Below the pieces are notes generated by a model. That model saw nothing but the letters and a program-made list of their open reading frames with translations. It had not been told where the DNA came from and searched no databases. Position numbers and translations under genes: made by a program. 64,000 nt of DNA from Pseudomonadota bacterium (GTDB taxonomy: Bacteria > Pseudomonadota > Alphaproteobacteria > G022571365), in contig JACZXZ010000007.1 of the NCBI GenBank assembly GCA_022571365.1, positions 3,366 to 67,365 of the forward strand, written 5' to 3'. Positions 2,862-63,328 of this stretch are shown here, piece after piece; positions within the stretch are counted from its first letter, which is position 1, and every line of letters starts with the position of its first letter.

Positions 2862-3138
2862 TCACCGGTCCCGGCCGACCGCCTGAAGAGCAGCGCTCCC
2901 TCCGTAGTGTCTTAAGATCCCCTTGAGCGCGATCGGCGTCCAGGTGCCCCGGTCGACCAGCGCTTCGAGAACGCCGGCGCGCCGATTGAGCAGGGCTCCG
3001 CCTGACCGGACCCCGGCGGTGGCGCGTCCGCGTTGGGCCGGTAACAGCCAATTGCGTATGGCGCATTTGTTGCAACAAAAAACCGCTTGCTATCGCGTGA
3101 ATATATATCCAAAAAAACACACCCTTAGGAGGCAGACG

Positions 3139-4005
3139 ATGTCCGACCACCTATCACGATTTCGCGCAGTGCGGCGGTGGGTTTTGGCGGGCGTCGCGGG
3201 CGCAATCGTGGCCGCGGCGCTGGCCCTCGGGCTGGGCCTCGCCCCGGCGGTTGCGGAAGAGCCCCCGGCCGGCGAGGCGTCGGAACCCTTCCCGCCCTAT
3301 CCTGAGGTGTGGGGCCGGGAGCTGCCCTATCCCGGGGACGGCAGCTATTCCATCCACCAGGAAGTGTTCGAGGCCCCGGACGGCAGGGTGATTGTCAGTA
3401 TCTACGCCAGTCCTCTGCGCTCGGATGAGTTTGAATATCGCGTGTTGGACTTCTTCTCCGGCGAGATGCGGACCATCGACAAAAAGATCTCCTACGACAT
3501 CCGGTCTGGCGGGAAGCACAAGCGCTTGTACGCACTGGATATCGAGCTGGCCGACGGTGGCAGGCTCACATACAAGAGCCACCGGGTTAGTAACTGCACG
3601 GTCACCTACAACATCCATTACGTCAAGCGCGACAGAGATGGAGAGATCGTCGCCGACAAGATGCTGCTCTATCTCTACGACCGGCCCGTGCGCGTCGATG
3701 TCAACCCCTACTGCGAGATCAGTAGCGATCGGGCCCATTTCCACCAGAACTGGCGCCAGGTTGGGCTCGCGTTCGCACCGCTCAAGGACGGGACCTTTCT
3801 TGCTTACGACGGACCTTTCATCATTCGCTTCGATCCGGACCTGAACTCGCCCTTCATCGACAACAAGCGGCTGTTCCTGCTCGACCGGGTGGTGGTGATG
3901 GACCTGGTCGATGAGGCCTTCGCCCGCGATGGACCCAGCCTTCAGAACATCGACGACGTGATTTACGACTATCTCATCAAGCTTAGGGAGGAAGCACACA
4001 AATGA
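3139..4005 (+). CDS. hypothetical secreted/periplasmic protein (288 aa), no recognisable domain
   Basis: Strong SD (AGGAGG at 3127-3132) 6 nt before ATG 3139. N-terminus MSDHLSRFRAVRRWVLAGVAGAIVAAALALGLGLAPAVAEE looks like a signal peptide (possibly Tat, RRW motif). GC ~55% versus ~68% background. Confidence 0.6.
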   Translation: MSDHLSRFRAVRRWVLAGVAGAIVAAALALGLGLAPAVAEEPPAGEASEPFPPYPEVWGRELPYPGDGSYSIHQEVFEAPDGRVIVSIYASPLRSDEFEYRVLDFFSGEMRTIDKKISYDIRSGGKHKRLYALDIELADGGRLTYKSHRVSNCTVTYNIHYVKRDRDGEIVADKMLLYLYDRPVRVDVNPYCEISSDRAHFHQNWRQVGLAFAPLKDGTFLAYDGPFIIRFDPDLNSPFIDNKRLFLLDRVVVMDLVDEAFARDGPSLQNIDDVIYDYLIKLREEAHK

Positions 4006-56684: not shown

Positions 56685-57701
56685 GTGATTCAGAGGAATT
56701 GGACGGACCTGATCAAACCCAACAGGCTCATTGTCGAGCCGGGCGATGACCCGGCGCGCGAGGCCGTCGTGGTCGCCGAGCCGTTCGAACGCGGTTTGGG
56801 ACTCACTCTCGGCAACGCGCTGAGGCGAATTCTGTTGTCGTCGCTGCATGGCGCGGCGGTCACATCGGTGCAGATCGACGGGGTGCTGCACGAGTTCTCG
56901 TCGATCCCAGGCGTGCGCGAAGACCTCACCGATATTATCCTCAACATCAAATCCATCGCGCTTCGCATGCATGGCGAGGGGTCGAAGCGCATGACGCTCA
57001 AGGGCACCGGTCCCGGGGAGATCACGGCCGGGATGATCGAGACCGGACACGAGATCGAGATCATGAATCCCGAGCTCCTCATCTGTACCCTGGACAAGGG
57101 GACAAAGATCAACATGGAGATGACGGTGGAGGGCGGTAAAGGCTACGTTCCAGCCTCGCAGAGCCGCGCCCCCGATGCGCCCATCGGTTTGATTCCCGTC
57201 GACGCGGTGTTCAGCCCGGTGAAAAAGGTCGCCTACAAGGTCGAAAACACCCGCGTCGGCCAGGTTACCGACTACGACAAGCTTTCGATGCGGGTCGAGA
57301 CCAACACCACGGTCAGTCCGGAAGACGCGGTGGCCCTGGCGGCCCGCATCCTGCAGGATCAACTGCAGCTGTTCATCAACTTCGAGGAGCCCCAGGTCGC
57401 TATCGAGGCCGAGGAGCATGCCGAGCTGCCGTTCAACAAGAACCTGCTGCGCAAGGTGGACGAGCTGGAGCTCTCCGTGCGCTCGGCCAACTGCCTCAAG
57501 AACGACAACATCATCTACATCGGCGATCTGGTTCAAAAGACCGAGCAGGAAATGTTGCGGACGCCGAATTTCGGCCGCAAGTCGCTGAACGAGATCAGGG
57601 AAGTGCTCGACACCATGGGCCTCCATCTCGGCATGGAAATCCTCGATTGGCCGCCGGAAAACATCGAGGAGCTGGCGAAGAAGCTGGAAGAGCCGTACTG
57701 A
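56685..57701 (+). CDS. rpoA: DNA-directed RNA polymerase alpha subunit
   Basis: GTG 56685 gives [15 protein letters not shown]..., matching alphaproteobacterial RpoA N-termini. AAGAGG 10 nt upstream. ORF 56646..57701 in the supplied track opens with an upstream TTG. Confidence 0.9.
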
Positions 57702-57767
57702 TCCGGCCGGCTCGCCGGGGGGCGCGGCCGGGTTCCGGCGAGTCCAGGCCCGGGAGGAGGTACCGAC

Positions 57768-58196
57768 ATGCGTCACCGTGTCCGCGGCCGCAAGCTGAAC
57801 CGCACCTCGAGCCACCGCAAGGCGATGTTCGCCAACATGGCGGTCGCGCTGATCAAGCACGAGCAGATCAAGACCACCCTGCCCAAGGCGAAGGATCTCA
57901 GGCGGGTGGTCGAAAGGTTGATTACGCTCGGTAAGCGCGGCGGCCTGCACGCGCGGCGCCAGGCGCTTTCGATCCTCCAGGACACGGGACTCACGGAAAA
58001 GCTGTTCACCACGCTGGCGACCCGCTATGCCGACCGGAACGGGGGTTACACCCGCGTGGTAAAGGCCGGGTTGCGTTACGGCGACGCCGCGCCCATGGCG
58101 ATCATCGAGCTGGTTGACCGCGACCCGGAGGCCAAGGGCAAGGACTCCGGCCCCGTTCCGGGCGGGGAAGAGGAGGCCGCGGCGGCCGAGGCTTAG
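57768..58196 (+). CDS. rplQ: 50S ribosomal protein L17
   Basis: [42 protein letters not shown]... Confidence 0.95.
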
Positions 58197-58242
58197 ACTC
58201 CGTCACGGTTTGCCACGGATGACCAAGCGAGGCAGCCTGTTG

Positions 58243-58325
58243 GGCTGCCTCGTGTTTTGTCAGGTGGTACATTATGTTCGGCACGCTGCGGGAGCGGGTC
58301 CAGGCCTCCCTCGGCTCGGGCGTCA
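58243..58325 (+). repeat. chimeric partial copy of degP 5' region: ~36 bp promoter/UTR-like segment plus 38-bp perfect internal degP fragment
   Basis: 58243-58278 matches 60465-60500 (31/36). 58288-58325 is identical to 60863-60900 (inside degP coding for RERVQASLGSGV). Confidence 0.8.
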
Positions 58326-58333
58326 GAAGCGCG

Positions 58334-59620
58334 TCAAGCTGTCCCGTGGCGTTTTTCCTGAGTGGTGACGCCGAGTGATTCGGCCACCGCCCTGGCCGTC
58401 GCGCAGCCGGTGAGGTAGGCGCCATGGCAGGTGGCGATGAACTCGTGCGAGGCCGCCTCGCCGGCGAAGAATAGCTTATCGTCGATGGCCGCCGCCATGT
58501 CGCGCCGGGCGCCGCCGCGGCCCGGCAGCGCGCACGAGTATGCCCCGCGGACCAAGGGATCGCCGTCCCACGCCGAGCAGGTCGTCCTGACGATGTGCTT
58601 CTCGATGTCGTTGCCGTAGACGCCTTTAAGCTTTTCGATCGCGTAGTCGGCCATCGTCTGCGGCCCCGAGCGCTCGAGCCACGCGCTGAAGCGGCCGCCG
58701 ACCAAGCCCACGGCGTGGTCGCGGTCGAACGGGCGGATCTGGAAGGCGATCGACTCGGGCGTCTCGTTGTAGACCGTGAAGCCGTCCCCCTGGTCGGGTC
58801 CGAAGACGTCGCGGTCGAATTCGATGCCGATGCGGTTGTGGCTTCCCAGCGGCAGGCTCTCGATCGCCGCGAGCTTCCAGTCGGGAAGCCGCGGTTCGAA
58901 GTGGATGTCGCCAGCGCCGAGCACGCCGGTCGAGACGGTGACGATCGCCTTCGCCGCGGTCACCGTGCCCTTCGGCGTCGTCACCCTGATCTCGGGCCCG
59001 CCCCAGTCGATGCGCTCGGCGCGCGCATTCAGCGCGACCGGCACGCCCGAGAAGTAGGCGGCGACCAGCGACCCGTAGCCGTCGACCAGCGGCCAGTTCT
59101 CGCCCGTGTCGTTGTAGCTCGACGAATCGACCGTCGAAACCTGGTCCGAATCGACCGAGGCGAACATCGAGGTCCACAGGTCGAACATCGGCGTCCAGCG
59201 GTCCTCGCGCGCGGTGACCTCGGTGACGGCGACGTCGCGCCCGGCGTCGGCCGCGGCCTTGATCGCCCCGTGGCAGCGCTCGTCGAACGCCTCGCGCTCG
59301 CGGCATTCCGCCTCGGTCGCCCAGCGGTCGCCGAGGTGGATGCGCCGCGGAAAGTCGTCCTTGGTGTAGGCGTGACCCAGAGATTCGGCGATTTCCACAT
59401 AGGGGTTGAGACTCGCCGAATGCATCCAGTGGCAGCCCAGGTCGAAGGGGAAGGCGAAGGCCTCGGTGTCGGTGAAGGCGCGCCCGCCGATGCGGTGCGA
59501 GGCTTCGAGCAGAGTCACGCTGAGGCCCGCCTCGCGCGCCGTCCTGGCCGCCGCCAAGCCGGCCGAGCCCGCGCCGATGACGACCAGATCGACCGGCGAC
59601 GCCGGTTTTCCCATGACCAT
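58334..59620 (-). CDS. FAD-dependent amine oxidase family oxidoreductase
   Basis: Start at MVMGKPASPVDLVVIGAGSAGLAAA (dinucleotide-binding GxGxxG). Flavin amine-oxidase-like C-terminus (FFAGEAAS). ORF 58334..59782 has 54 extra upstream codons, unlikely to be translated. Confidence 0.78.
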   Translation of the reverse strand: MVMGKPASPVDLVVIGAGSAGLAAARTAREAGLSVTLLEASHRIGGRAFTDTEAFAFPFDLGCHWMHSASLNPYVEIAESLGHAYTKDDFPRRIHLGDRWATEAECREREAFDERCHGAIKAAADAGRDVAVTEVTAREDRWTPMFDLWTSMFASVDSDQVSTVDSSSYNDTGENWPLVDGYGSLVAAYFSGVPVALNARAERIDWGGPEIRVTTPKGTVTAAKAIVTVSTGVLGAGDIHFEPRLPDWKLAAIESLPLGSHNRIGIEFDRDVFGPDQGDGFTVYNETPESIAFQIRPFDRDHAVGLVGGRFSAWLERSGPQTMADYAIEKLKGVYGNDIEKHIVRTTCSAWDGDPLVRGAYSCALPGRGGARRDMAAAIDDKLFFAGEAASHEFIATCHGAYLTGCATARAVAESLGVTTQEKRHGTA

Positions 59621-59831
59621 TCCCTCCCTCGTTCCTACTCTAGCACACCGCCCCGCCCATCGCGCAGCCCCCGGTATTGGGCAAAGACGCGGGTGGCGCG
59701 TCCGGCTAAGCTTGGGTCGGGTTCCGGATTGATTGGGAGCCAAACCGCTGAGGGCCGTTCCTGACCCTTTGCGGACATTCAACGTGGCGCGGTTCTATGT
59801 CCCCAAATGACCCGAAGGCGACTTTGGCCAG

Positions 59832-60326
59832 CTAGAGAAGTCTCTTTGTAAGAATCACTTCGTAGTCTTCAAAGCCATAATTCTTGTATGCTTGGCGCGC
59901 TGTCTTGTTCTTGCTTTTGATGCAGACGGTCATCCAGTGTAGCCCTTTTGCCAGCATGGTACGTTCGAACTCTCGCATTAGGGCTGTCCCGATGCCTTGT
60001 CGGCGCCGTTCGCTCTGGACAAAAAGGTCAGAGATATAGGCACTTCGATCGAACTCTGAAGCGACTAGACAGTCCCCCGCTTTGTGGGCGTAACCTGCCA
60101 GCACTCCGACGATTTCTCTGTTTGCCTCAGCGACGAGAAAGACACCCTTGTCGGCGGTCAGCCGGTGGCGGAGATCGGACAGGTAGTCTTCCCAGACATC
60201 GCGTCCAGGCCTGAGGGGATATCCGACAATTTCGTGCTCAAAGTCTTGAATGTTCGCCACGGCCTGGCCCAAAGCGGTCCAATCCGCATCTTCTCCAGTT
60301 CGAATGGTAAATGTCGCGTGCTTCAT
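59832..60326 (-). CDS. GNAT family N-acetyltransferase
   Basis: 164 aa with acetyl-CoA binding motif A (VQSERRRQGIGTALM). GC ~52%, well below surroundings. Confidence 0.8.
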   Translation of the reverse strand: MKHATFTIRTGEDADWTALGQAVANIQDFEHEIVGYPLRPGRDVWEDYLSDLRHRLTADKGVFLVAEANREIVGVLAGYAHKAGDCLVASEFDRSAYISDLFVQSERRRQGIGTALMREFERTMLAKGLHWMTVCIKSKNKTARQAYKNYGFEDYEVILTKRLL

Positions 60327-60506
60327 GATGTGGAATATATATGGCGTGCGTCACGTAGAACAGGTTACGACCGTTCATGGCTATGAGCTGACATTGCGCC
60401 GCGACCCGGCCAGCGTCCGCTGATGGCTATGAGCGGACCTTCGACAAACTGAGACACTACCGTCGGCTGCCTCTTGTTTTATCGGGTGGTACACTATGTT
60501 AAGGCC

Positions 60507-62015
60507 ATGTTGAAGGATCCGGGGCGGCAACGGTGGCGGAAGATGGCCGGTTTCGGCGAAAAGCTGAGGACGGGTGGCACGGGCTGGGGGTCCCGCCTGT
60601 CGCTCGCGATGCTCGTTGGATCGCTGGTTCTGCTGGTGGCCGGCCCTTGGGCCGAGCCTAGGGCCCAGACCGCCCAGACCAAGGCGGTGCCGGAGACGAC
60701 GGGCGAGATCGAGCTGTCCTTCGCGGCCGTGGTCAGGCAAGCGGCGCCCGCCGTCGTCAACATCTATACCCGCAGGGTGGTGCGATCGGGGATCGCCTCG
60801 CCGCTGTTGAAGGATCCGCTTCTGCGCCACTTCTTCGGCGAGGGCTTCGGCTTCGGCATGCCGCGGGAGCGGGTCCAGGCCTCCCTCGGCTCGGGCGTCA
60901 TCGTGCGACCGGACGGTTTCCTCGTCACCAACTATCACGTCATCCAGGATAGTGACGAGATCACCGTGGTGCTGGCCGACCGCCGCGAGTTCGGCGCCAC
61001 CATCCTGCGCACCGACGAGCGTACCGACCTGGCGGTGCTCAAGATCGACACCGGCGGCGAGGAGCTGCCCTTCCTCGAGCTCAGGGATTCGGACGAGCTC
61101 GAGGTCGGGGACCTGGTGCTTGCCATCGGCAACCCCTTCGGGATCGGCCAGGCGGTGACCAGCGGCATCGTCTCGGCGCTGGCCCGCACCCAGGTCGGTA
61201 TCACCGATTTCCGCTTCTTCATCCAGACCGACGCGGCGATCAACCCCGGCAACTCGGGCGGGGCCCTCGTCTCCATGGACGGCCGGCTGGCCGGCATCAA
61301 CACGGCGATTTTCTCGAGAACCGGCGGTTCGCTCGGCATCGGCTTCGCGATTCCGTCCAATATGGTGGCGACGGTGATCGCCGGCGTGACCAGCGGCGGC
61401 CGCCTGGTGCGGCCGTGGCTCGGCGCCAGCGGTCAAAGCGTGACCGCGGACATCGCCGAGTCGCTCGGCTTGGCCAGGCCGGGCGGGGTCATCATCGCCC
61501 GGGTCTACCCGGGCGGCCCGGCGGATGGCGCGGGCCTGGAGGTTGGCGACGTGGTCACCGCGGTCAACGGCCGGGAGGTGGAAGACAGCGAGGCTCTTCG
61601 GTTTCGCATCGCCACCCTGCCCATCGGCGGCGGCGCGACCCTGGCCTTGCACCGCCGCGGCAGCGATCGGACCGTTACGGTCTTGCTCGAGGCGCCGCCG
61701 GAGGATCCGCCGCGCCAGGAGACGATGCTCCGGGGGGCGCACCCGCTGTCCGGCGCGACGGTGGCCAATCTCTCGCCAGCCCTGGCCGATGAGCTTGCCC
61801 TCGACCTCTTCGCGCGGGGCGTCGTCATCCTCGACACCGCCCGTGGCAGTCCGGCGCAACGGTTCTTCGCCACGGGCGACATCCTTCTCCGCATCGCCGG
61901 CCTCGAGACCGAGACAGTCGATGCGCTCGAGCGCGCCCTGATGCAACCGGCGCGCGTCTGGAACATCGCCCTGCGCCGGGGCGGCAAGGTGGTGAACCTG
62001 GCGGTCTCCGGATGA
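60507..62015 (+). CDS. degP: periplasmic serine endoprotease DegP/HtrA family (trypsin domain + PDZ)
   Basis: Catalytic triad context (TNYHV, DLAVLK, GNSGGAL), C-terminal PDZ. Start uncertain: ATG 60507 or 60543, with TTG 60474 opening the ORF. Confidence 0.85.
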   Translation: MLKDPGRQRWRKMAGFGEKLRTGGTGWGSRLSLAMLVGSLVLLVAGPWAEPRAQTAQTKAVPETTGEIELSFAAVVRQAAPAVVNIYTRRVVRSGIASPLLKDPLLRHFFGEGFGFGMPRERVQASLGSGVIVRPDGFLVTNYHVIQDSDEITVVLADRREFGATILRTDERTDLAVLKIDTGGEELPFLELRDSDELEVGDLVLAIGNPFGIGQAVTSGIVSALARTQVGITDFRFFIQTDAAINPGNSGGALVSMDGRLAGINTAIFSRTGGSLGIGFAIPSNMVATVIAGVTSGGRLVRPWLGASGQSVTADIAESLGLARPGGVIIARVYPGGPADGAGLEVGDVVTAVNGREVEDSEALRFRIATLPIGGGATLALHRRGSDRTVTVLLEAPPEDPPRQETMLRGAHPLSGATVANLSPALADELALDLFARGVVILDTARGSPAQRFFATGDILLRIAGLETETVDALERALMQPARVWNIALRRGGKVVNLAVSG

Positions 62016-63328
62016 GCAGCCTGTTCGAGGCCCAGGCTCCGCGTCCGCTGGCCGACCGCCTGCGTCCGCGGAGGCTGGATGAAGTCGTGGGGCAGGACCA
62101 CCTCTTGGCCCCGGACGGCCCGATCGGCCGCATGGCGGCGCAGCGCCGGATCGTTTCCATGATCCTGTGGGGCCCGCCGGGCTCGGGCAAGACCACGATT
62201 GCGCGGCTGCTGGCCGATGTCACCGACTTTCATTTCGAGCCCCTGTCGGCCGTGTTTACCGGGGTCGCGGATCTCAGGCGGGTGTTCGATGAGGCTAAGA
62301 AGCGCCGCGAGGCCGGCCGCGGCACCCTGTTGTTCATCGACGAGGTTCACCGCTTCAACCGGATCCAGCAGGACGGCTTCCTGCCCTACGTGGAGGACGG
62401 CACGGTCACGCTCGTGGGCGCGACCACGGAAAACCCGTCCTTCGAGCTCACCCCGCCGCTCTTGTCCCGCTGTCAGGTATTGGTCTTGAAGCGCCTCGAC
62501 GACGCCGCGCTCGAGCGCCTGCTCGTCCGCGCCGAGGCCGAAGTGGACCGCCGGCTGCCGCTCGACGGCGACGCCCGGTCCGCGCTCAAGGCCATGGCCG
62601 ACGGCGACGGGCGGTTTGTGTTGAACCTGGCCGAGGAGCTGTTCGCCCTGCCGCCCGCGGCCGACGACGGAACGGCGGTGCTGGATACGGCCCGGCTCGC
62701 CGCCATGGTCCAGCGCCGCGCGCCACTCTACGACAAGGCCCAAGAGGGCCACTACAACCTGATCAGCGCGCTCCACAAGTCTTTGCGGGGCTCGGACGCC
62801 GATGCCGCGCTTTACTGGATGGCGCGCATGCTGGCGGGCGGCGAGGACCCGCTTTACATCGCCCGGCGACTGGTGCGATTCGCGGTGGAGGATGTCGGGC
62901 TCGCCGACCCCGACGCGCTCGTGCAGGCGCTCGCCGCCTGGGACACCTACGAGCGTCTGGGCTCGCCCGAGGGCGAGCTGGCGCTCGCCCAGTGCGTGAT
63001 CTATCTGGCGACGGCGCCCAAGTCCAACGCCGCCTACCGCGCCCTTGGCACGGCCCAGGCGGCGGCCAAGAAGACCGGCTCGCTCATGCCGCCCCTGCAT
63101 ATCCTGAATGCGCCGACGCGGCTCATGCGCGATCTCGGCTACGGCAAGGACTACGTCTACGACCACGACACGGAGGCGGCGTTCTCGGGCCAGGACTACT
63201 TCCCCGAGGGCATGGAACGGCGCCAATTTTACCGGCCCGCCGACCGCGGCTTCGAGCGCGAGATCAAGAAGCGCCTGGAGTACTGGCGGAAGCTGCGGGA
63301 ACGAAAGGGTTCCGGCCGGGATCAATAA
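62012..63328 (+). CDS. rarA: replication-associated recombination protein A (AAA+ ATPase)
   Basis: ATG overlaps degP stop. Walker A GPPGSGKTT, Walker B LFIDEVHRFN, MgsA C-terminal domain. Confidence 0.9.
   Translation: MSSLFEAQAPRPLADRLRPRRLDEVVGQDHLLAPDGPIGRMAAQRRIVSMILWGPPGSGKTTIARLLADVTDFHFEPLSAVFTGVADLRRVFDEAKKRREAGRGTLLFIDEVHRFNRIQQDGFLPYVEDGTVTLVGATTENPSFELTPPLLSRCQVLVLKRLDDAALERLLVRAEAEVDRRLPLDGDARSALKAMADGDGRFVLNLAEELFALPPAADDGTAVLDTARLAAMVQRRAPLYDKAQEGHYNLISALHKSLRGSDADAALYWMARMLAGGEDPLYIARRLVRFAVEDVGLADPDALVQALAAWDTYERLGSPEGELALAQCVIYLATAPKSNAAYRALGTAQAAAKKTGSLMPPLHILNAPTRLMRDLGYGKDYVYDHDTEAAFSGQDYFPEGMERRQFYRPADRGFEREIKKRLEYWRKLRERKGSGRDQ

Follow-up and report, generated by a model that had tools for sequence, protein, structure and literature searches.

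A probable scar of a displaced degP 5' end behind rplQ in an alphaproteobacterial population

We analyzed a 64,000-nucleotide stretch of a Pseudomonadota bacterium (Alphaproteobacteria, GTDB lineage G022571365; assembly GCA_022571365.1, contig JACZXZ010000007.1, positions 3,366 to 67,365 of the forward strand), hereafter the window, in which an 83-nt element at 58243-58325 lies between rplQ and the intact serine endopeptidase gene degP. Our results suggest, with a probability of roughly 85%, that this element is a non-functional pseudogene scar left by a displaced duplicate of the degP 5' end, which was fused to foreign DNA at an 8-bp microhomology and probably shortened later by a deletion between two 15-nt repeats. 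The features of the region and the types of accessory islet found between rplQ and degP in close relatives are collected in Table 1.

A repeat scan and local alignment revealed that 58243-58278 is identical to the degP 5' flank (60465-60500) at 32 of 36 positions, and that 58277-58325 is identical to an internal part of degP (60852-60900, codons ~104-120) at 47 of 49. An earlier interpretation made from the DNA letters alone (the sequence-only reading) had located the first similarity correctly, counting 31/36 identities, and had described the second as a 38-bp identical segment, which is the exact core (58288-58325 = 60863-60900, encoding RERVQASLGSGV) of the longer 49-nt match. In the gapped local alignment the two pieces abut, sharing TT, and the left copy resembles the degP 5' region minus ~352 nt. 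The 38-nt core was the longest exact direct repeat within 57500-62500, while in 200 first-order Markov simulations of the sequence the longest exact repeat had a mean of 12.8 nt and a maximum of 17 nt. The degP-derived repeats are far above chance.

Close relatives were reached via an exact look-up of the RplQ protein, which is identical on 11 related contigs, and via members of the DegP cluster; searching for exact matches to the DegP and the GNAT acetyltransferase of the window, and to P0001, returned no record. The fragment recurs at the same place in four further contigs from independent assemblies (L002, L177, L178 and L182), and in the five contigs overall, window included, it is confined to islet types B and C and to one position. 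A fragment in unrelated surroundings, named by the sequence-only reading as a contrary sign, was not what we saw: in every case it had the rplQ terminator on one side and the amine oxidase 3' end on the other. A metagenomic mis-join at a short repeat is hardly credible as the source of the element. The window contig is metagenome-derived, and related contigs break exactly at the variable islet borders (L005 and L008 end at 58255, and L176 starts at the hairpin hpR) or, in the case of L179, contain a gap of Ns at a duplicated hairpin. The same junctions, however, occur in five contigs that stem from different studies and assemblers and have substitutions private to each, and the sequences shared at the junctions (2 nt and 8 nt) are far below the assembly k-mer size. 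The extra hairpin unit of L179 (1640-1650) flanks the gap between the duplicated hairpin units and was set aside as a scaffolding ambiguity. Since assemblers break at this strain-variable site, contigs over the region need care.

For the right junction, the window was aligned three ways, with its own degP and with the type-D contigs L009 and L183. The remnant tracks degP up to GGGCGTCA (58318-58325 = 60893-60900), and from GGGCGTCA onward it tracks the sequence downstream of the amine oxidase gene in L009 and L183. There, type D continues on the minus strand into genuine coding sequence of an old yellow enzyme (OYE) gene (LLTPFTIKGVTFRNRVMSGGH...), with ~115-150 OYE codons past the joint (Pfam PF00724) that match only N-terminal positions of the OYE-family NCBIfam profiles. 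The alignment therefore shows an illegitimate recombination at an 8-bp microhomology, joining degP codon ~120 to OYE codon ~8. On the OYE side, the type-D state is ancestral to the B/C state. The L002 joint lacks 11 nt, consistent with slippage between two GCGTCA repeats.

A longer version of the displaced copy came to light when a protein collection was searched with a hypothetical product consisting of DegP residues 1-120 and the tail of the small open reading frame (ORF) that spans the remnant. The search yielded P0138, a protein of 138 residues that starts with MFGTLR, runs through the DegP N-terminus to GFGFGMPRERVQASLGAGV and ends in ILSHGVFPEW, the same tail as in L002. The contig L184 (GCA_044345325.1) contains, in this order, the rplQ 3' end, the terminator, a GGTGGTACATTATGTT leader, ~385 nt of degP 5' sequence, GGGCGTCA and the amine oxidase 3' end, and the sequence of remnant part 1 also heads this long form. 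The duplication and truncation of the degP 5' end, as proposed by the sequence-only reading, are borne out by L184, which still holds the displaced sequence at this place. Two copies of a direct repeat (TTCGGCAYGCYGCGG), R1 (TTCGGCACGCTGCGG, L184 253-267) and R2 (TTCGGCATGCCGCGG, 586-600), are 13/15 identical at a distance of 333 nt; this stretch contains only one other direct-repeat family. We found that the L184 long form minus the R1-R2 interval equals the window's short element exactly. The two mismatches of the window fragment to degP (ACG, CTG) correspond exactly to the R1 variant found in the long form, therefore a repeat-mediated deletion accounts for them without extra mutations. The chimeric fusion described earlier holds insofar as two degP pieces are joined, but the joint would be a secondary internal deletion between the 15-nt repeats rather than a primary chimera.

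The short forms differ at this joint, which reads ACG CCG, an R1/R2 hybrid, in L002 and has the R1 variant in the window. L184 shares with L002, and not with the window, GCGTTGGG in the terminator tail and a joint 11 nt shorter. The R1/R2 deletion probably arose separately in the lineages of type B (window) and type C (L002). Among the degP alleles, that of the type-D contig L183 (487 residues) comes nearest to the copy in L184, aligning without gaps at 94.3% identity. Over 368 nt the L184 copy has 11 substitutions that no functional copy shows, and 6 of these fall at codon positions 1 or 2. At L184 255-265 the native degP leader gives way to a clustered patch of 11 nt, CGGCACGCTGC, which creates R1 and pairs with the downstream GCAGCGGTG as a small hairpin (-12.1 kcal/mol, z -2.55). 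The patch may have been templated from R2 or from the complementary strand, or may have arisen by chance.

The early stages of the element's history can be read from the contigs. Foreign DNA, comprising OYE, amine oxidase and NmrA-like genes and later the GNAT module, occupies the rplQ-degP spacer in this population, and in one lineage an illegitimate joint at GGGCGTCA fused the degP part to the OYE gene. The product, rplQ-terminator-degP' (leader plus ~120 codons)-amine oxidase...intact degP, survives in L184. We propose that the displaced copy then decayed, presumably when recombination or slippage between R1 and R2 removed 333 nt, and that the long form is the likely precursor of the short forms. 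Two routes by which the displaced copy may have been placed behind the terminator are possible. In the first, type-D donor islet DNA would integrate into an islet-free recipient with a homologous end in degP/rarA and an illegitimate other end, which would be a form of homology-facilitated illegitimate recombination. In the second, a microhomology-mediated tandem duplication would come first, and the first islet copy would then be deleted between the 13-nt repeats GGCTGCCTC[G/T]TGT, which requires a rare deletion outcompeting simple reversion.

A one-step origin, which we favored at first, is now very unlikely because L184 shows the long form. In such an event, resembling microhomology-mediated break-induced replication (MMBIR) or fork stalling and template switching (FoSTeS), no long intermediate would have existed: a type-D fork stalled at the rplQ terminator would have undergone three template switches, copying 23 nt of leader, then 49 nt of internal degP, and returning at GGGCGTCA in the OYE gene, with the outcome that ~450 nt (left islet frame plus OYE fragment) would be replaced by a 72-nt templated patch. 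Microhomology is present at all three junctions (12/13 nt of GGCTGCCTCKTGT, TT and GGGCGTCA), both patch sources lie within 2.6 kb, and signatures of template switching occur nearby, namely the palindromic terminator with an inverted loop in L002 and the hairpin-forming 11-nt patch in L184. Against these features stands the long form of L184, which sits at exactly this place, has the leader variant ACATTATGTTCGGCACGCTGCGG in common and is joined to the amine oxidase in a like manner, and the window's ACG and CTG mismatches are already explained by the repeat-mediated deletion.

Several points weigh against a scar with the history proposed above. No islet-free allele, with rplQ next to degP, was present among ~20 close contigs. 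No functional degP leader contains the R1 patch, and the 13/15 likeness of R1 to R2 must be either lucky or templated. The long form was found in one metagenomic contig of 1,023 bp, L184, although its degP part, with substitutions of its own and both junctions, argues against a graph chimera. In addition, the substitution counts behind the relaxed constraint described below are small, and a weak regulatory role of the element, through the terminator tail or as antisense RNA in the amine oxidase 3' untranslated region (UTR), may exist.

As for function, the remnant retains only degP codons ~104-120 and lacks the PDZ domains as well as the catalytic His, Asp and Ser; the Trypsin_2 domain begins at residue 116. 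The 49-nt piece has 3 variable sites among the five remnant copies, while the same 49 nt are identical in 9 functional degP copies and a tenth, from L172, is identical over the 38 nt shared; all DegP variants keep GFGFGMPRERVQASLGSGV. These small counts suggest that the remnant is under relaxed constraint relative to degP. The small ATG-initiated ORF attributed to the fusion is indeed present (34 residues). It was not called as a gene in L002, L177 or L178 and has no Pfam match, and an 11-nt deletion in L002 shifts its tail out of frame (MFGTP...GSGVILSHGVFPEW). A small protein from this ORF was rejected as a candidate, its tail not being conserved among relatives. Likewise, we rejected a structured RNA: Rfam gave no match at E <= 1 in 57600-61000 and none in the type-A spacer, and apart from the terminator hairpin the fold was unremarkable against shuffled sequences (z -0.43).

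A functional remnant is accordingly given very little weight, whether as a small peptide (a DegP-derived decoy or leader) or as an amine oxidase 3' UTR antisense to degP, in which the amine oxidase messenger RNA would pair with the degP leader and codons 104-120 and couple amine oxidase expression to degP repression. A Shine-Dalgarno (SD)-like AGGTGG is located 7 nt upstream of the ATG at 58274, a minus-strand transcript could be complementary to the degP messenger RNA over 47/49 and 30/34 nt, and the remnant is kept in five contigs. In contrast to what a functional element would lead one to expect, the ORF tail is frameshifted in L002 with no gene called in related contigs, the remnant gathers substitutions while its degP target is invariant, part 1 is partly overwritten in L002, neither an Rfam family nor unusual structure was seen, and types A, D and E do without the remnant.

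The first 18 nt of the 83-nt element are the 3' arm and the T-rich tail of the rplQ terminator. This predicted terminator, with a 12-bp stem at 58227-58253 followed by GTTTTGTCAG, lies 31 nt past the rplQ stop codon, folds as DNA at -15.7 kcal/mol (z -5.2), and is the only terminator-like site in 57600-61000. The piece had been read as part of a degP promoter; a scan for sigma-70 -35/-10 hexamers spaced by 16-18 nt found no sigma-70-like site on either strand in 57600-61000, and the piece consists instead of the native terminator tail and the degP leader. Types B and C retain the native T-rich tail; types A, D and E have another sequence in its place, and no terminator was called in them. Preserving this tail would be the sole plausible present-day effect of the remnant. 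In L002 (1509-1545, corresponding to window 58222-58258) the terminator loop is inverted, with CAACA for TGTTG, and the 3' arm is converted, making the stem a perfect 16-bp palindrome (-23.9 vs. -15.7 kcal/mol). This change looks like a quasipalindrome template-switch mutation that overwrote the T-rich tail.

To place the locus in a wider context, gene order was compared by a DegP-based scan with one genome per GTDB species, giving 80 alphaproteobacterial loci (best identity 64%). DegP scans of genome and metagenome contigs gave no relative above ~67% identity, and these loci were used for synteny only and not for junctions. We found rplQ upstream of degP in the same orientation at 68 of the 80 loci. 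The two genes were directly adjacent, with <500 nt between matches, in 46 of these 68, and in the remaining 22 they were separated by unrelated genes spanning 0.8-5 kb, among them an aldolase, short-chain dehydrogenase/reductase (SDR)/NmrA-like epimerases, an ornithine-decarboxylase-like gene, an alkaline phosphatase and a PIN toxin. At most of the relatives' loci rarA follows degP. Because adjacency is common and the inserts are diverse in relatives, gene order shows rplQ-terminator-degP-rarA to be the ancestral arrangement, with a spacer that has been invaded repeatedly across lineages. The ancestral rplQ-degP order anticipated by the sequence-only reading is thus in line with the state most common among relatives.

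Within the close relatives, the flanks (rpoA-rplQ, degP and rarA) are mostly 97-100% identical across related contigs, and flank similarity does not track islet type; the left flank of the window, for instance, is 100% identical over 1,610 nt to that of the type-A contig L004. The near-identity of the flanks, incongruent with islet type, therefore marks one recombining, species-level population. Its rplQ-degP spacer is hypervariable, with at least five arrangements (Table 1) set between flanks of 98.5-100% identity. On the left, the sequence shared by all contigs stops at 58255, the end of the terminator stem, and diverges beyond; on the right, it starts at the hairpin at 60415. The amine oxidase gene is carried by types B, C and D. 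Both genes between the element and intact degP are on the minus strand, as stated earlier, and the GNAT segment has the low guanine-plus-cytosine (GC) content noted for it, 0.50-0.575 as compared with 0.65-0.72 around it. The view of a single inserted GNAT and amine oxidase block did not hold, since the two are separate modules with separate histories. L002 has an NmrA-like gene fragment instead of window 59743-60342, and at 3013-3323 it keeps the SD sequence (GGGAGG), the ATG and 99 codons (MILVTGATGTVGG...) of this NmrA/SDR-like gene, with which the amine oxidase gene would originally have formed a divergent pair. The GNAT module seems to have replaced the NmrA-like fragment, because in the window it starts directly after that SD sequence (59733-59745). 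A plasmid origin of the GNAT module was searched for by blastn against PLSDB, with no match. The OYE gene (L009 1688-2131; L183 3121-3468) comprises only the N-terminal third, ending at the left islet hairpin, and the L183 fragment has an additional internal deletion. The islet is decaying from both ends.

The cargo is enclosed by a frame of inverted GTGTCTCAGTTT ends, direct hairpin copies and the 13-nt direct repeat of the terminator arm. The hairpin has the form GTCCGC-N12-GCGGAC, followed by ATT, ATC or CTT. Behind the terminator, types A, D and E continue with GTGTCTCAGTTTCAGCTTGTCGGTGATGGCTGGGTCTCAAGAAC-GTCCGCTTATGACCCTTTGCGGAC-ATT, and degP is preceded by GTCCGCTGATGGCTATGAGCGGAC-CTTCGACAAACTGAGACAC-TACCGTC-GGCTGCCTCTTGT; the frame was also located in L174 (7166-7237 and 7873-7915). 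Further hairpins divide the amine oxidase and GNAT genes (59752-59779, degenerate, and intact in L009 at 3543-3566) and lie past GNAT (60368-60395). The right-frame elements upstream of degP are constant across all arrangement types. Unrelated cargos share the same hairpin edges: the 0.6-kb GNAT module, the 2.5-kb OYE'-amine oxidase-GNAT block and the 9.3-kb ABC-transporter/molybdoenzyme block. No other copy of the exact hairpin turned up in the 64-kb window or among 160 loci from other taxa, a search that covered only ~100 kb of this species. A genome-wide repetitive extragenic palindromic (REP) element was rejected as its source, as no further copies were found and the family appears local. 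The frame could be a decayed landing pad resembling a miniature inverted-repeat transposable element (MITE), or an attachment site.

It is unlikely, though less so than the other alternatives considered here, that the spacer is a dedicated cassette-exchange site rather than a passive hotspot, served by a site-specific or hairpin-directed system with the degP copy as part of, or collateral to, the attachment site. Unrelated cargos do occupy one slot between hairpins, framed by the inverted GTGTCTCAGTTT ends and the 13-nt direct repeat, and the hairpin family occurs nowhere else in the loci searched. However, no integrase, transposase or recombinase was found in any version of the islet, the 9.3-kb type E included, and no recombinase Pfam family occurred on genes within 6-10 kb in any related contig. 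The degP' joints lie at ordinary microhomologies and not at hairpins, and the difference between types A and D looks like a simple deletion between two 24-nt hairpin copies. Whole-islet exchange by homologous recombination in the flanks suffices, because the flank phylogeny is incongruent with islet type. If the cassette system were real, a hairpin-directed or site-specific recombinase that has not been described so far would have to act on it in trans, with the degP remnant as collateral damage. The hairpin and inverted-repeat frame is the only part of the locus that might lead to something new.

The intact DegP, for which gene callers give 490 residues, scores 442 bits on TIGR02037 (cut-off 416). 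Its start is uncertain: callers use the ATG at 60543, and an in-frame ATG is also present at 60507. A third ATG, at 60496, is out of frame and begins a mini-ORF of 5 codons (MLRPC) that is preceded by an SD-like GGGTGG, and in one strain (P0129) an indel puts the upstream ATG in frame. The first ~370 nt of degP, encoding the signal peptide and an N-terminal linker (window 60543-60900), are far more polymorphic than the flanks, with up to 25-29 differences per 368 nt between two allele classes as compared with ~1-2% in the flanks (window, L172, L183 and L002). The classes encode 490 and 487 residues, with and without RAQ, and mosaic alleles also occur. The degP and rarA genes overlap by 4 nt (ATGA, 62012-62015), which suggests translational coupling of these two conserved neighbors.

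Table 1. Features of the region between rplQ and rarA in the window, and islet types in close relatives
Feature	Position	Strand	Evidence or remark
rplQ (ribosomal protein L17), last alpha operon gene	57768-58196	+	Pfam Ribosomal_L17, E 1.4e-39
Predicted intrinsic terminator of rplQ	58227-58260	+	12-bp stem, 3-nt loop, T-rich tail GTTTTGT
Left copy of 13-nt repeat GGCTGCCTC[G/T]TGT	58243-58255	+	3' arm of terminator; partner at 60465-60477
Remnant part 1 (TTTGTCAGGTGGTACATTATGTT)	58256-58278	+	native terminator tail and degP leader; matches 60478-60500
34-codon ATG ORF over remnant (MFGTLRERVQASLGSGVRS...)	58274-58378	+	judged spurious
Putative deletion joint	58277-58291	+	one surviving copy of the R1/R2 pair (TTCGGCACGCTGCGG)
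Remnant part 2	58292-58325	+	degP codons ~109-120 (ERVQASLGSGV); identical to 60867-60900
Illegitimate joint	58318-58325	+	8-bp microhomology GGGCGTCA, common to degP (60893-60900) and OYE gene start (type D)
Remnant of first ~8 codons of OYE (Oxidored_FMN) gene	58318-58341	-	alignment to L009/L183
Type-B joint sequence			GGGCGTCAGAAG
Flavin amine oxidase-family gene (islet cargo)	58334-59617	-	Pfam Amino_oxidase, E 1.1e-48
Degenerate hairpin copy hp2 (GTCCGC-N12-GCGGAC-ATT), left border of GNAT module	59752-59779	+	repeat family D3
GNAT acetyltransferase, low GC	59832-60326	-	Pfam Acetyltransf_1, E 6.6e-15; module ~59743-60342
Islet right frame	60368-60457	+	degenerate hairpin hp' 60368-60395, hairpin hpR 60415-60438, inverted end CGACAAACTGAGACAC 60442-60457
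Right copy of 13-nt repeat and degP leader	60465-60500	+	source of remnant part 1
Intact degP/htrA, Do-family serine endopeptidase	60543-62015	+	TIGR02037; Trypsin_2 and PDZ domains
Source of remnant part 2	60852-60900	+	R2 60852-60866 and GGGCGTCA 60893-60900
rarA/mgsA, conserved right neighbor of degP	62012-63328	+	Pfam MgsA_C, E 2e-68
Islet type A			GNAT only; L004, L174, L175
Islet type B			degP remnant, amine oxidase, GNAT; window, L177, L178, L182
Islet type C			degP remnant, amine oxidase, 99-codon NmrA-like fragment; L002
Islet type D			truncated OYE (Oxidored_FMN) gene, amine oxidase, GNAT; L183, L009; L003, L010 partial
Islet type E			9.3-kb block of ABC transporter and molybdopterin oxidoreductase; L172 = L001, L173, L007, L180

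The locus offers a base-pair view of accessory DNA wedged in beside an essential operon, with a duplicate that would have arisen at an 8-bp joint and decayed via a deletion between 15-nt repeats. It also carries a warning for annotation, as the 34- and 138-codon ORFs appear to be pieces of a pseudogene and not new genes.

Horizontal-transfer hotspots between core genes, with gene remnants, have been described (Oliveira et al. 2017, PMC5635113). The rplQ-degP interval resembles them in being short, in holding accessory genes that differ from strain to strain and turn over fast, mostly without mobility genes, in its apparent exchange via homologous recombination in the flanks, and in the presence of truncated OYE', NmrA' and degP'. 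Its flanks are syntenic core genes, and its gene content differs among close strains (types A-E and the long form). It differs from them in that the scar is a partial copy of a flanking core gene and in that the population keeps both long and short forms. The integron offers a further comparison, because the modules here are separated by hairpin repeats oriented the same way, with a constant first site at a fixed chromosomal position. On the other hand, there is no intI, the hairpins have 6-bp stems and 12-nt loops, they lack, by inspection, the R''/L''/L'/R' GTTRRRY cores (RYYYAAC ... GTTRRRY), and one of the cargos, 9.3 kb long, comprises several genes that lie on both strands. We know of no report of integrons from Alphaproteobacteria.

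With regard to mechanism, homology-facilitated illegitimate recombination on uptake of foreign DNA has reportedly been described by de Vries and Wackernagel and by Prudhomme et al., both in 2002. The likeness lies in one end anchored by homology (degP/rarA) and the other located at the 8-bp GC-rich GGGCGTCA; the difference is that classical products replace or delete recipient DNA, whereas the joint here would lie inside the anchoring gene and duplicate its 5' end. The uptake route and the islet-free recipient are inferred in our case. In Escherichia coli, e14 and phage 21 displace the end of their target gene icd by site-specific integration, which involves an integrase and an att core located within icd. 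As at icd, an intact gene stands on one side of the insert and a displaced, drifting partial copy on the other; unlike icd, there is no integrase here, and the joint is an 8-bp OYE microhomology and not an att core repeat. Quasipalindrome template-switch mutation is said to have been worked out by Ripley and by Lovett. Its signature may be seen in the L184 patch that makes a hairpin and in the L002 palindrome perfected with an inverted loop. The junction microhomologies of 2-13 nt also recall the template switching of MMBIR/FoSTeS (Hastings et al. 2009, PMC2621351), although the main structure seems better explained by duplication and repeat-mediated deletion than by one multi-switch event. 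The element further shows the marks of a pseudogene remnant, namely identity to its parent, truncation, relaxed constraint and a less-decayed intermediate in L184. Taken together, these comparisons suggest that the element, with no sign of function, is an ordinary genome-rearrangement scar, another case of a known kind, for which one natural population appears to preserve an unusually complete series of successive rearrangement states, from the type-D islet through the long copy of L184 to the two short forms, alongside the adjacency seen in relatives.

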